A DNA stretch of 64,000 nt from Eledone cirrhosa. Taxonomy: Eukaryota. The translations under genes and the position numbers were made by a program. The notes beneath the pieces are model-generated. The model did not search any database and had not been told where the DNA came from. It saw nothing but the letters and a program-made list of their open reading frames with translations. Every line of letters begins with the position of its first letter. The first letter of the stretch is position 1. The stretch lies in the NCBI GenBank assembly GCA_964016885.1, contig OZ024750.1, positions 30,938,001 to 31,002,000 on the forward strand, in the 5' to 3' direction. Positions 41,601 through 57,259 of this stretch are shown here, piece by piece.

Positions 41601-41845
41601 TTAAATAGAATAAAACAAGTGCGAAAATTATTTTAACAATCACAAATCTTATAACTCTGTTTCTTCTAAATAAAATTAACGACATTGAAATATTATTTAT
41701 TTGTATCAAGATAAAAATTAGATATTTTTTTTGTCAAGATTTACACAATTAATGTCTTTTAGGAGCACAATAGCTTTAACTGAATACAGTATATATATAT
41801 ATATATATATATATAAGATCAAAAGATGGTTAAAGGAGTTCCATG

Positions 41846-41916
41846 TATTTTATTATGCGCATTTCAAAAACAAACATCATCATGCAATAATATTTGTATT
41901 TTCATCAGATAAAACA
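41846..41916 (-). ncRNA. Type I hammerhead ribozyme motif (inverted twin of 42067-42137)
   Basis: Reverse complement of the plus-strand copy with an intact core. Confidence 0.83.
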
Positions 41917-42066
41917 GGAGGACATGATATGAAGGCTAAAAAACACTTGTGGATAGTGCAGTTTTAAATCAACATATCAAATATATTGATTTAAAACTGC
42001 ACAACATATGTTGATTTAAAACTGCACTATCCACAAGTGTTTTTTAGCCTTCATATCATGTCCTCC

Positions 42067-42137
42067 TGTTTTATCTGATGAAAACACAAATATTATTGCA
42101 TGATGATGTTTGTTTTTGAAATGCGCATAATAAAATA
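42067..42137 (+). ncRNA. Type I hammerhead ribozyme motif
   Basis: Stem I TGTTTTAT/ATAAAATA; CTGATGA at 42075-42081; 16-bp stem II with one mismatch; GAAA at 42118-42121; palindromic stem III TGCGCA; AUA cleavage triplet. Confidence 0.85.
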
Positions 42138-43970
42138 CATGGAACTCCTTTAACCATCTTTTGATCTTTATATATTATGTATACTCCAGTCCTACAAACT
42201 GTAGAGTGCTTCTTATCCGATATCTGCATTGCTTTATTGTACTACAATAAAACTCACCTCCTACATATATATATATATATATATATATATGTAACAAAGA
42301 GGGTGTGGTAAGATACCAGGTAGACCTAACACACCAGAGTACTCAATACTTAGGGTAGTAGTAGAGTGGATAATATGAAAATAGTCAGGACCTCGATGGC
42401 TGAGCTCCCACTGTTTTGACAGCTAGATCCGGATCTAAAAATAACCGGAGCTCAGCCATCAGGTCCTGACTCTTTTCATATATATATATATATATATATA
42501 TATATATATATATATATATATATATATTATACTTTGGAAGGGTCATACTGCCAATAAAAACACATGTACATTTTGGTTTTCACTTCAATTTATTACAAAT
42601 TTCCAGTTGGCTGGTTTAATATTGCATGGTTCTTTATTTGTTTATTGTCAAAACTCTTTCATCACACATTCTGTGACCTCCTCAGTGACTAAATTTTTAT
42701 TTTGTGTCTCTCCTTTGTTCTGTCCTACACCGTTTTGTTTTTGTGTGTTGTATGCTGTGTACTTGGGTTTCACATGCGTTATATCTGGGTGGTGGATTGG
42801 CAGTATCGGTAGAGGGTCGGACGCTATGCTTTGACGTATAGAGTTACGGCCCTTGCCATTCTGAGTTCAATCCCGCCGAGGTTAACTTTGCCTTTCATCC
42901 TTACGAGGTTGATAAAATAAAGTACCAGTAATGCTCTGGGTAATTTCTGGCCTTGTGCCAAACGTAGAAACAATTATTTATTTATTTATATATTTATTTA
43001 CTTGTCACTATTTGGTTGCTTGTTCTATCTGCGTGTATCTGGTTTATTTTATTAGTTTGGTTCTTATGTGTCTCTGTATGTCTTTATCTTGTCCTTAATT
43101 ACTAATTGTGATGTTGTTGCTATTCCACTCATGTTTTCTGTTAAATTTTGGTTGGAGTTCGTTTATGTTTGTTGCTTCTGTAATCTGTTTGACAGTGACA
43201 AGGGACAACCCAGCCCCTCCTATTTTTGCTGTTACTAACACCACATCATAAAGAAAAAGAGAGAGAGAAAGATAAACGAAAATGTGAATTTATATATACT
43301 GTATTTATATATATATAGTAATAATAATAAAATTGAAGACTAAAATCCAAAGAGGGCTCGATAAGGAAAATATATATCAAATATATAAGAACCGAAGAGC
43401 AAATATTTATTAATATAGTTTCAGAAGATCCCGTTAAGGGTGAAAGCAGCGATTCTTTGCTTAAACTTTAATCTGTTATATTAATATATATATATATATA
43501 TATATATATATATATATATAAATGGAAAAAATGAAATTTCATTTCTCACTCATAGTACGGCTGATACTTAAATATAAGTATGTATAGGTACATACATATA
43601 TGTATACAGACATACAGTAGTATGTATATACATACATACATGCACACATATATATATGTACGTATGGGTTTATCAAATATTTATTATAATATTCGGTTTG
43701 TTTGTAAACAAACAGCCCGAATAAAGCCGTACAGTGTTCGGCAACCATCGTTGCCCTTTTGTTCAACACTGACAAAGGAACGATGAACTAGTTTTTAGTT
43801 TATTAGCTGTCATCAGCACCGTATAAATGAAATTTCATTTTTTCCAGTTTTCGTTTTCGGTACGCCCGGCCGACTAACTCACTCGCTATGCAAATTAGGC
43901 TGCTCAGCTGTTAATATGCATAAGGAAAGTATATACTTTCAAACGTTCAATCGATTGACAGGAAGGTATA

Positions 43971-44011
43971 TAGTGCTGATGACAGCTAATAAGCTTGAAA
44001 CTAGTTCATCG
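43971..44011 (+). ncRNA. Minimal hammerhead ribozyme motif
   Basis: GTG-CTGATGA-c-AGCT/aata/AGCT-t-GAAA-CTAG-TT-CAT. The inverted twin at about 43780-43821 has GAAA changed to AAAA but a better stem I (CGGTG/CATCG). Confidence 0.65.
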
Positions 44012-44306
44012 TTCCTTTGTCAGTGTTGAACAAAAGGGCAACGATGGTTGCCGAATACTGTACGGCTTAATTCGGGCTGTTTGTTTACAAACAAACCGAA
44101 CATTATAATAAATGTTCGGTAAACCCATACGTACATATATATATATGTGTGCATGTATGTATATATATACATACTACTGTACGTCTGTATACATATATGT
44201 ATGTACGTATACATACTTATATATATATATATACACACACAGACACAACACACACAAACAAGATGGCGTAGGCCAGAACAAAGGAGAGACACAAAATAAA
44301 CAAACA

Positions 44307-44349
44307 GTCACTGAGGAGGTCACAGAATGTGTGACGAAAGAGTTTTGAC
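44307..44349 (+). ncRNA. Minimal hammerhead-like motif
   Basis: GTCA-CTGAGGA-g-GTCACA/gaatg/TGTGAC-GAAA-gagt-TT-TGAC. An inverted twin lies at about 42647-42689. Confidence 0.6.
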
Positions 44350-54815: not shown

Positions 54816-55342
54816 CAATAGATATGTATAGTTAAGTGGAGGTCCGAAAAAGAAAAGTATTCTTTAGCAAATGTCTACTAGGTTTCAGTCAAGGTCGAGA
54901 CAAATGTATTTGTTTTTACTTTAGGCACAAGGCCAGCAATTACCCAGTTCATTACTGGTACTTTATTTTATCGACCCCGTAAGGATGAAAGGCAAAGTCA
55001 ACCTCGGCGGGATTTGAACTCAGATCGTGAAGGGACGTAACTATGCTGCAAAGCATGGCGTCCGACCCTCTACCGATACTGCCAATCCACTGCCAAATGT
55101 ATTATCACCTCGTCAGTAGCTCGTAGTCAGTATAGTTTCATGTATTATATGGGTGGAGGTGGAGGTGGTGCTGGTGACATGGCGAAGATGCATTCGTTTG
55201 TACATGTTATGTAACTGTGCTTGTTCGCTAATACTTTATTCATACATCTTCACAACAATACGTACCTATTTTGTTGAAATACAAGTATATATATACTTGT
55301 ATTTATATTTATAGCAAGTATATATATATATATATATATATT

Positions 55343-55545
55343 GGAACAAGTAGGACCCCGACGGCTGAGCTCAAGCCATTTCGACGGCTAATTCTGGACG
55401 TAATTAGTCCAGAATTAGCCGTCGAAACGGCTTGAGCTCAGCCGTCGGAGTCCTACTTGTTCCTATTACCCACTCTACTACCCTAAGTATTGAGTACTTT
55501 GGTGCGTTATGGTCCATCTGGTTCCTTACCACATTTCCTTCGTTA
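55343..55545 (+). mobile_element. Short TA-embedded repeat with a fold-back end and the 3' half of a hammerhead
   Basis: 57-bp arms at 55343-55399 and 55407-55463; GAAA-CGGCT..AGCCG-TC. Homologous copies lie at 42292-42480 and 50090-50146. Confidence 0.7.
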
Positions 55546-56031
55546 TATATATATATATATATATATATAAATAGAAGTACAGCATAGTCGAAGCTCGAGC
55601 CGCAGCTAAGCCAACGAATGCAATCAGAAAGAGCAGCCAAGCACTAGATAAGGTATAAAACCTTAGAGTAATAACATTCCGTTTAAAGGGCTTTGCAAAT
55701 TGAAGATAGCGACCCTTAATTCAGCCGCAGGGACCGTAGCAACGAAAGAACTGACTCGCGAGAAAAATTACATACATATATATATACATATATATATATA
55801 TATATATAACAAACCTGGACCATCATATATATATATATATATATATAACAAACCTGGACCATCACTTCGATATTTTGCAATATCTCAGTTAGGTTTCTGT
55901 AAATCGACGGTTTAAAACCGTCTCTCTCTCTTATATATATATATATATATATATATATATATATATAAGAGAGAGAGACGGTTTTAAACCGTCGATTTCC
56001 GAGCAATATAAGGAACACTTGTGATTATTTA

Positions 56032-56071
56032 TGCCCTTGAGAAGCCCAACTGGGCGAAACGTACGTAGGTG
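56032..56071 (+). ncRNA. Variant-core hammerhead-like motif
   Basis: TGCC-CTTGAGAA-GCCC/aact/GGGC-GAAA-CGTACG-TA-GGTG; GUA triplet; lies between (TA)n tracts. Confidence 0.55.
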
Positions 56072-56509
56072 CTGTTTTAAATAAACATGTTTTAACGGTC
56101 TATTCTCCGATTTTTTACTTTCTCACGTATATATATATATATATATATATATATATATATATATATATATATCTTGGTTATATATGTTCTGGCTTGTTAA
56201 TTTATTAACCTGCCATTGAACCACATTGGCATATGGTTGGATAATACATGTGTCCCTATTCGTTTTTTGCGTGTAGGGATATATACTTTATTATTATTAA
56301 TCTCCCCCTGGTCGAGATGAAATTTGCTCGTTTTGACTACTGCTATTTATAGTGGTAGTAGATTGACCTCCCTGCCTCTGCCTTCTATCTTTGCACACGA
56401 CACTGGACAGAATTGCTTCCACATCATTCATTCTCATATCGGGAACAATTTTGAATAGCGCCAGTTTGTAATTTGAACTCGGGAATTTTATATTCTCCGA
56501 GTGAAAAGA

Positions 56510-56596
56510 ACCTTCTGACGAGAGTTTATTTTTTCAATGGAAGCCCGCAAGGACTATCCATTTATTTTTGAGACTCGAAACCGATTCTGTAAAGGT
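56510..56596 (+). ncRNA. Type I hammerhead ribozyme motif with a fully canonical core
   Basis: Stem I ACCTT/AAGGT; CTGACGA at 56515-56521; stem II GAGTTT/AGACTC, extended by AATGGA/TCCATT and a GCAA tetraloop; GAAAC at 56577-56581; GUA triplet at 56589-56591. Confidence 0.85.
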
Positions 56597-56773
56597 AACC
56601 ATATTAAGTACAGTGAATTTTTTGAAATTTATTTTGAAACTTTTTCTTATTTGCTAAACCTTGATTATATATATATATATATATATGTATAAGAGATATT
56701 TAATTTGTTGGAAATCAAATAAATATAGATGTTTACAACTGATTCAAAGCACTCGACAGTTTCTGGAGTGAGT

Positions 56774-57259
56774 ATTTAATTGATATTAAATAAATGGAAA
56801 CTATATTTATAAAACCATATTTATTCTATTATATATATTTCAAGGGTACCAAAAATTTGGTACGCTATCATCAGAAAAAATACAAAATGTTTTATAAATA
56901 TTTGACATGACCAAGGATAATATACCTTATCGGTTCAAGTTATCTTGATATTTAAATTTTATATTTAAATTTTCCATAGCGTCTAAAATAACGTCTTTTC
57001 ACCCCTTTAATATACACATCATTTGCATAATCATATTAATCATTTTAAATATCTGACTTTTTCTCCTCTCTTCCCTTCACTTTCCAAGGATAACTTGAAC
57101 CGTTAAGGTATATCATCCTTGGTCATGTCAAATATTTATAAAACATTTTGTATTTTATCTGATGATAGCGCACCAAATTTTTGGTACCCTTGAAATATAT
57201 ATAATAGAATAAATATGGTTTTATAAATATAGTTTCCATTTATTTAATATCAATTAAAT
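56774..57259. repeat. Inverted repeat, about 174-bp arms (56774-56947 and 57086-57259), Penelope-like pseudo-LTR relic
   Basis: The arms are reverse complements with a few differences, and each carries a hammerhead motif. Confidence 0.9.
57151..57211 (+). ncRNA. Type I hammerhead ribozyme motif (inverted twin at 56822-56882, minus strand)
   Basis: Stem I TATTTTAT/ATAGAATA; CTGATGA at 57159-57165; imperfect stem II (ACCAAA/TTTGGT); GAAA at 57192-57195; palindromic TATATA; AUA triplet. Confidence 0.78.

Follow-up and report, generated by a model that had tools for sequence, protein, structure and literature searches.

The region between positions 41814 and 57259 (~15.4 kb) of a 64-kb stretch of contig OZ024750.1, from the 3.0-Gb genome assembly of Eledone cirrhosa (GCA_964016885.1), carries about fifteen predicted hammerhead ribozyme motifs, located on stubs of Penelope-like elements (PLEs) and on short non-coding repeats that are likely hitch-hiking on them. 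The whole 64-kb stretch is referred to as the window, and coordinates are those of the window. We propose, with a probability of about 0.85, that repeats of coding PLEs and non-coding tandem units were written into TA microsatellites one after another by PLE reverse transcriptase-endonucleases. In total, fifteen full and four half motifs from eleven families were found in the region. The family letters A to J and L are working names, and L-numbers denote genome loci. The family searches of the genome gave 82 to 3335 first-look candidates each, with 40 scored per family.

Families A, C, E and G correspond to the ends of coding PLEs. The preliminary description of this DNA had proposed a PLE origin and several families with retrozyme-like members, both of which are supported by these four families and by the non-coding tandem units B and F. 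It had also regarded the families as non-coding, which does not hold for A, C, E and G, as in other copies they run upstream into PLE open reading frames (ORFs) on the same strand. That no intact PLE ORF is present in the window was right, and the last 27 codons of the family C ORF survive there at about 43110-43190. In locus L293, family A is organised as an inverted A arm followed by a pseudo-long terminal repeat (pLTR), an open frame of 821 codons, and another pLTR at a distance of 3930 nt. The predicted protein possesses the motifs RLRW, DKT, CxCx5C, CxxC, and CxH, and its structural model (mean predicted local distance difference test 81, built with 17 sequences) matches telomerase reverse transcriptase (RT) best, in the top six structural ranks. 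Compared by eye with the sequence printed in the supplement of PMC8557442, the protein resembles Hydra-1_Obim. Of 25 matches, one has a named source, Argonauta; both findings make an octopod host likely. Asn-rich inserts of low confidence, as described for rotifer PLEs, precede the endonuclease linker at about residues 600-680 of the L293 protein, and also in L287 and L288.

Similar to family A, family G is found as G-ORF-G-ORF in locus L281, and its ORF ends about 1400-1480 nt upstream in five distinct loci. The family G ORF is broken, is homologous to that of family A, and contains RW, DKT, and the linker. In family E the ORF ends 200-325 nt upstream in nine out of nineteen other query loci. 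The E ORFs are broken, the RT is 42% identical to that of family A, and RW, DKT, CxxC, and CxH are present, with the linker intact in L100; a 3' repeat, inverted copies, and a tail were also seen. The Hydra clade is recognised by RW(K), DKT, CxCx5C, CxxC and CxH around E and N, and the lack of CCHH, all of which apply to the A protein; by their predicted proteins, families A, E, and G are ends of Hydra-clade PLEs. Family C is predicted to be the end of another coding PLE clade. Of 58 copies (some loci overlap), 16 have an ORF that terminates 178-308 nt upstream, and L299 shows the arrangement C-ORF-C. The ORF matches RVT_1 with an E-value of 4e-4 and GIY-YIG with 3e-4, neither of which reaches the curated cut-off. 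The linker of family C, Cx2-5CxxC in L184, differs in type from that of A, E, and G, and a CCHH endonuclease pattern was read by eye; both are features of Neptune/Nematis-type PLEs, to which family C may belong. Direct-repeat pLTRs around an ORF are thus present in L293 (A), L281 (G), and L299 (C), together with an inverted truncated copy and a one-sided tail.

In the window, family A is represented by two inverted arms. The left arm (41815..41977, minus strand, hammerhead 41846-41916) is a short end without tail that shares 94% identity with the pLTR of the complete L293 element, and the right arm (42005..42264, plus strand, hammerhead 42067-42137, predicted cut after 42129) is a Hydra-type PLE pLTR with tail. 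Family G possesses a left arm with tail (56678..56944, minus strand, hammerhead 56822-56882, stem I weakened) and a right arm (56961..57259, plus strand, hammerhead 57151-57211), the short end of a Hydra-type PLE pLTR. Family E is present as one young copy (55996..56129, plus strand, hammerhead 56032-56073), the end of a Hydra-type PLE and 98-99% identical to its best full-length matches. Family C occurs twice. Its minus-strand copy (42527..43190) comprises the ORF remnant, a 3' untranslated region split by a repeat similar to short interspersed nuclear elements (SINEs; 42788-42976), the hammerhead (42647-42689), and a tail, and its right copy (44243..44400, plus strand, hammerhead 44307-44349) carries an extra base before G10.1-C11.1.

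Families B and F fit non-LTR retrozymes, judging from their organisation as non-coding, head-to-tail units with one type I motif each. Same-strand copies of family B are spaced 416-425 nt apart in five of six pairs (509 nt in the other), and those of family F 486-488 nt in three of four (7515 nt in the other). The sequence upstream of B and F is their own end only, the longest ATG frames comprise 45 (B) and 52 (F) codons, and the circular folds scored z -10.1 (B) and -4.7 (F) against 40 shuffles. An ORF beside B in L039 was rejected as B's own since it belongs to another family, and so was an ORF remnant near F in L296, which is cut off by a microsatellite. The window contains a B left arm (43520..43825, minus strand, hammerhead 43780-43822, GAAA decayed) and a B right arm (43826..44217, plus strand, hammerhead 43971-44011) that corresponds to nearly one 416-425-nt non-coding unit. 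Family F is present as one whole 485-nt non-coding unit preceded by about 12 nt of another unit (56172..56668, plus strand, hammerhead 56510-56596); stem III has 4 bp in the family and one mismatch in the window copy. The search of sequencing runs with family F listed no RNA dataset.

It is highly improbable that all families are non-coding retrozymes spreading as circular RNAs, with the patch as their graveyard. The non-coding, tandem, and self-paired units of B and F would agree with this explanation, as would families D, H, I, J, and L, for which no linked ORF was found in the retrieved loci. It is refuted for four of the eleven families, given that a PLE ORF lies upstream of A, C, E, and G at a distance that is consistent between copies, and that these families occur as direct repeats on both sides of ORFs. 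Family H also speaks against it, sharing at least 280 nt of upstream sequence in three other copies, so that H is not a 140-nt circle.

Each of the eleven type I motifs listed in the preliminary description was recovered with strict and looser descriptors and by eye. The core CTGANGA plus GAAA, described as common to all of them, is exact in eight (41846, 42067, 42647, 43971, 44307, 56510, 56822, and 57151) and variant or decayed in three. In the family B left copy at 43780 the G of GAAA is lost, family D at 45046 has the core CTGACAA, and family E at 56032 has TTGAGAA, which in hammerhead position numbering is a U3-A8 variant and is the same in 20 of 20 family E loci. Covariation of U3-A8 is known from Schistosoma PLEs (PMC4209133). 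Stem III is mostly palindromic, as had been noted, in eight of the eleven motifs, the exceptions being both C copies and F. At least six unrelated families had been counted; there are eleven, and their DNA is indeed unrelated, with cross-matches of 13-20 nt only, although a single PLE clade includes A, E, and G.

Further full motifs were found at 43422 (plus strand), 49969 (minus strand), and 50451 (plus strand), together with a decayed one at 52629 (minus strand). The first belongs to family I (43340..43480, plus strand), a type I motif with long stem III and the core CAGAAGA; A at core position 4 is present in 24 of 29 aligned copies. In the second family I copy (52574..52642, minus strand) GAAA is decayed. 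Family L (49810..50055, minus strand, core 49969, predicted cut 49870) possesses a stem II of about 80 nt, a palindromic stem III, and C at core position 4, the latter found in five of six other copies; a natural U4C with low in vitro activity has been described (PMC3088659). Family J (50400..50570, plus strand, motif 50451-50530) has a long stem II, and stem III is decayed in the window copy. The repeats of families I, J, and L were re-read, and the ordinary type I order fits. Family D (45005..45200, minus strand, hammerhead ~45040-45122) is old and decayed, and a linked ORF was not found in the retrieved loci. The half-motifs belong to family H and comprise the 3' half only, the whole motif being present in L017, L093, and L118. 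They correspond to a diverged copy (42304..42438, minus strand, 79% to H), a short end (50087..50148, minus strand), and a twin with a short arm (55340-55405, minus strand) and a tailed arm (55402-55545, plus strand), which retains GAAA, stem III, the cut site, and the stem I strand only. Across the families the type I order of CUGANGA, GAAA, and UH around three stems is present, with the variants U3-A8 (E), A4 (I), and C4 (L).

The motifs are confirmed by sequence controls as real type I hammerhead sequences, beyond chance. In 100 dinucleotide shuffles of the region the strict descriptor found a mean of 0.04 and a maximum of one motif, far below the six in the real sequence. Sixty spaced 10-kb tiles of the genome (0.6 Mb) gave 47 strict matches, versus one in 1.8 Mb of shuffled tiles, and with the relaxed descriptor 600 kb of real DNA gave 53 matches to the true core and 0-1 to each of ten decoy cores and six decoy GAAA boxes. 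Covariation of the stems was found in family B and in a group similar to A, G, and D; the fetched copies of E and F barely vary. In family B, with copies chosen by core pattern and without pairing filter, 95.5% of cells are paired and two-sided changes occur at six of twelve pairs. At most 2 of 500 shuffles reach any of these measures, a test that relatedness inflates, and slid controls are all far lower. Pairing in stem I was also counted in 46 distinct stem sets for which the core and an A/G/D-like stem III served as the only anchors; positions 1-4 are paired in 44, 41, 43, and 40 of these sets. Twenty of 28 multi-locus clusters with short stem III have perfect palindromes, which the descriptor does not demand. 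The probability that the motifs are chance matches in AT-rich, palindrome-rich repeats is therefore negligible, being refuted by the decoy and covariation tests. This explanation could draw on the weak folding energies of single motifs and on the Rfam scan of the window, which detected no hammerhead family at E <= 10 and only microRNA-type matches on palindromes.

The density of motifs was compared by a broad descriptor with the same sixty evenly spaced tiles. The region contains 10 matches in 15.4 kb, or 6.5 per 10 kb, with six in the best 10 kb. The tiles contain a mean of 1.15 per 10 kb and a maximum of five; the average is 1.67 in those with 8-20 TA tracts and falls to 0.125 where there is no more than one tract. 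Density in the window as a whole is 1.56 per 10 kb, and 200 kb of neighbouring DNA have three matches. These densities place the patch, whose borders were drawn around the motifs afterwards, as a local peak in the upper tail of a motif population that extends over the genome. The term hotspot used previously is therefore true in degree but not in the sense of a special site. No comparable motif had been noted in the 33-kb gene. The strict descriptor gave six matches in 41814-57259 and none elsewhere in the window, and positions 1-41813 and beyond 57259 contain no member of the families of the region. None of the 11 TA tracts at positions 1-8000 is accompanied by a hammerhead.

Insertion at TA microsatellites, also proposed in the preliminary description, is supported by the tiles and by 3' ends at (TA)n. 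Motif and TA-tract counts correlate over tiles (rho 0.56), and 60 of the 69 motifs in tiles are followed by TA within 250 nt, compared with 22% of random positions. That the patch is instead a selected, functional ribozyme cluster processing a host transcript is hardly credible. The density above all sixty tiles and above the TA expectation would agree with such a function, as would the position next to the end of a gene-bearing stretch without such motifs. Nonetheless, the orientation of the motifs is mixed, several copies are decayed relative to their own families, the twins form duplexes, and all units are dispersed repeats, for which the genome searches gave 82 to 3335 first-look candidates.

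The ends of the copies are informative on how they were made. Relative to the predicted cut, 3' ends form two clusters in five families, at +43/46 and +135/137 in A, +58/61 and beyond +123 in E, +20 and +99 in H, +81 and beyond +155 in F, and +47-57 and +153 in G. Opposite-strand pairs point outwards in 36 of 37 cases, and the tail is present on one arm only in 30 of 36. The 5' ends cluster at -128 to -120 in family A (22 of 52 copies) and at -44 to -33 in family H (32 of 47), while in C, E, B, and F the 5' ends do not converge on one sharp point. Starts at -3 to +4 of the cut site were found in none of 241 copies from six families, and in none of 94 outside own-query loci, a count that rests on loci retrieved by family searches and that very short 3' fragments might escape. 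This lack of starts at the cut site suggests that the templates were uncleaved or religated. For Poseidon of Anolis, two internal initiation sites were described in vitro, with uncleaved RNA as the main substrate (PMC11167929).

At the 5' junctions, the base before the starting A, where it is non-template, is G in 8 of 10 cases in family A and 7 of 10 in family H, including copies abutting unrelated DNA (binomial p 0.003 and 0.02 against one third, with twins not independent). Both starts agree with an initiator-like A consensus. The A and H stubs may consequently represent run-off complementary DNAs (cDNAs) of capped transcript starts, the extra G likely being the RNA cap; in LINE-1 and SVA such a G was read as copied cap (PMC4859970). 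Since transcription of H would start in loop II, its RNA would have the substrate half of the ribozyme at the 5' end. It is rather unlikely that the fixed 5' ends are instead points at which the RT stalled or switched template at RNA structure (or a splice junction), an explanation that would leave the rest of the model unchanged. Such an explanation would fit the position of the H end, directly beyond a strong stem II/III block and after a pyrimidine-rich AG. It would also fit the microhomology at the inverted junctions where most stubs terminate, and the lack of a single sharp 5' end in four families. The extra G in two families, also in copies beside unrelated DNA, its reading as a cap in LINE-1 and SVA, and the initiator-like A at both starts argue for the capped ends. 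Literature searches, by title or start of abstract, gave no evident report of capped-end stubs of PLEs.

In the mechanism that we propose, the enzyme would cut (TA)n and start cDNA at two fixed internal points of uncleaved or religated RNA. A start on the first repeat of the transcript would lead to run-off at the capped 5' end and leave a stub of 60-260 nt. Both cut strands would prime, giving rise to twins, and TA tracts would persist beside insertions, allowing nests to grow. The copies in the window would most likely be dead passengers. Any activity of the ribozyme would probably be confined to tandem transcripts, both of intact elements and of families B and F, and would give unit-length or circular RNA.

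The window copies are probably not functional, judged from their sequence. The family A twin folds into one duplex of 163 bp (-278.6 kcal/mol, z -35.8) in which the motif is buried, and dimer formation is impossible for inverted twins, which lie on opposite strands. Several window copies are also decayed relative to their families. The stems III of F and of full H may be long enough for cleavage as monomer. Published minimal motifs cleave weakly even as dimers, with low activity (PMC4209133), the Anolis motif needs protein (PMC11167929), and one of nine Xenopus dimers cleaved.

Several observations weigh against the proposed PLE origin and copying mechanism. The ORFs of A, E, and G were not recognised by local Pfam, and the sequence-profile search of solved structures in the PDB gave no match. 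The genome search with Pfam GIY-YIG (10,597 candidates, 150 scored) gave no strict motif downstream in the 30 top loci; these top loci belong to other PLE clades, and with a looser pattern a motif was found behind 5 of 20 long-ORF loci. No ORF could be linked to families B, D, F, H, I, J, or L in the retrieved loci, where the test among the unassigned families D, H, I, J, and L covered D, H, and J, and for all seven we infer the mobiliser from shared ends only. From its TA tracts 2.2 motifs would be expected in the region, but 10 are present, an excess of about 4.6 times that TA density alone does not account for. Single motifs fold no better than shuffles in nine of ten cases, as would be expected if stem III requires a partner. 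The extra G was counted at few junctions, those of twins are not independent of each other, and such a G may be mimicked by microhomology where inverted arms join.

Genome-wide, extrapolation from 0.02% of the genome gives estimates of 235,000 motifs with the strict descriptor (47 per 600 kb), 270,000 with the relaxed (bootstrap 195,000-350,000), and 344,000 with the broad one (250,000-444,000), that is, 78-115 motifs per Mb by descriptor. Schistosoma possibly comes near this load per Mb. The 28-Gb axolotl genome holds 126,247 motifs by another descriptor, and published counts of minimal motifs in other animals are 2,000-9,000 per genome versus the estimated 230,000-340,000 here, with descriptors that differ. 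In all retrieved loci, 392 matches formed 74 clusters, 32 of them with copies in at least two loci (some loci overlap). At somewhat less than even odds, we tentatively suggest that this is among the largest hammerhead loads counted (a few hundred thousand motifs, at least 32 families), and that the stubs record PLE copying in which synthesis is primed by both cut ends of a TA repeat, begins at two fixed sites of uncleaved RNA, and terminates by run-off at the capped start. By the same suggestion, the abundant family H would start inside the ribozyme and be cut only in trans or by a downstream copy, and the abundant family I would keep A4. Literature searches did not find the genome-wide count, the family I core, or the capped-end stub reading in print. 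The main text of the 2026 octopus repeat annotation makes no mention of ribozymes. On hammerheads in cephalopods these searches gave PMC8557442 as the only relevant paper, and supplements of other papers may hold cephalopod counts.

The following comparisons refer to the available parts of the cited sources. Hydra-clade hammerheads at (TA)n, including an Octopus element, are known already (PMC8557442), and with the element class known the patch itself is ordinary. The Hydra clade of PLEs with a C-terminal endonuclease, including Hydra-1_Obim of Octopus bimaculoides (Craig et al. 2021, PMC8557442), shares with the elements described here RW(K), DKT, the CxCx5C linker, CxxC, and CxH, a canonical type I hammerhead near the 3' end, (TA)n targets, the inverted truncated copy, and the one-sided tail. 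One octopus Hydra family with four copies ending at one site was described there, whereas at least three families occur here in 15 kb. Tails are 60-95 nt here versus 30-40 nt in the Hydra clade, full elements are longer, with a pLTR spacing of 3.8-3.9 kb versus less than 3 kb, and stem III is mostly an even palindrome, in contrast to the 1-3-nt loops of most listed Hydra motifs. Published minimal motifs are likewise of type I, with short palindromic stem III, long stem II, and many families per genome, and also share the extra base after A9 (C), U3-A8 (E, H), and the occurrence as single motifs or opposite-strand pairs 100-700 bp apart. Unlike them, A, B, G, and I lack G10.1-C11.1, and the A at position 4 of family I was not seen among those published motifs.

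Families B and F share with animal non-LTR retrozymes (Cervera and de la Pena 2020, PMC7229834; Li et al. 2026, 10.64898/2026.07.22.740005) the non-coding head-to-tail units with one type I motif each, low GC, a predicted self-paired circle, and a PLE as proposed helper. They differ in their 420- and 486-nt units, mostly in 1 to 1.9 units, in (TA)n ends, and in PLE-type inverted arms and tails. No cephalopod is named in the available text of either study. Poseidon of Anolis (Frangieh et al. 2024, PMC11167929) shares two internal initiation sites defining the tail, an uncleaved template, and the lack of ends at the cut site. It belongs to another PLE clade, its ribozyme overlaps the start codon, and capped-end stubs and twins are not described in the text available. 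The pattern of inverted copy plus tail is already published for PLEs. Two aspects remain useful, namely the scale of the hammerhead load, and the role of PLE hammerheads together with the making of mirror insertions. PMC8557442 states both this role and the origin of mirror insertions as open, and young elements, an intact ORF, and many fixed-end stubs in one genome make both questions directly testable.

In many loci, G-like families have a recurring GGTATG that resembles a splice donor and precedes the hammerhead, some 80 nt ahead of the cut site; in the Penelope of D. virilis an intron ends at the hammerhead (PMC4209133). Between the H twin and family E, pieces of a further repeat lie at 55570-55925; they are found together again in L116, and no hammerhead was recognised in them. 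A short palindrome around a TA tract (55887-56014) abuts the truncated 5' end of family E. The SINE-like repeat is abundant and present at 42788-42976, 48900-49104, 50765-50970, 54892-55095, and 61340-61725, and another copy splits the PLE ORF in L039. Two sets of protein matches, with L039_1732 as query and with L101_1598 (at the E motif), were dropped as artefacts that arose from a SINE and from non-coding DNA within these frames.

At 47347-48215 there is an 870-bp palindrome with arms 96-99% complementary, containing two repeats only ~80% like their other copies (1426 candidates). As the arms are far closer to each other than the repeats are to those copies, it appears to be a recent fold-back duplication of old DNA. 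It was rejected as a hammerhead element, having neither TA flank nor hammerhead. The segment 46046-46880 (minus strand) is presumably a 3' fragment of a non-LTR retroelement with restriction-like endonuclease motif, without Pfam match, and a near-identical fragment lies beside a TA tract in L028. A 190-codon open frame at 51999-52568 (minus strand), also without Pfam match, resembles what we take to be a Helitron helicase remnant. Gene exons are present at 2540-26916 (minus strand), with weak VWD (E 0.012) and EGF-like (E 0.0005) matches. To the right of the region, 58128-58500 and 59880-60255 form a direct duplication of about 375 nt with the appearance of a solo terminal repeat, and a satellite of about 70 kb with a unit of about 60 nt extends over loci L224-L230, 30-100 kb right of the window.

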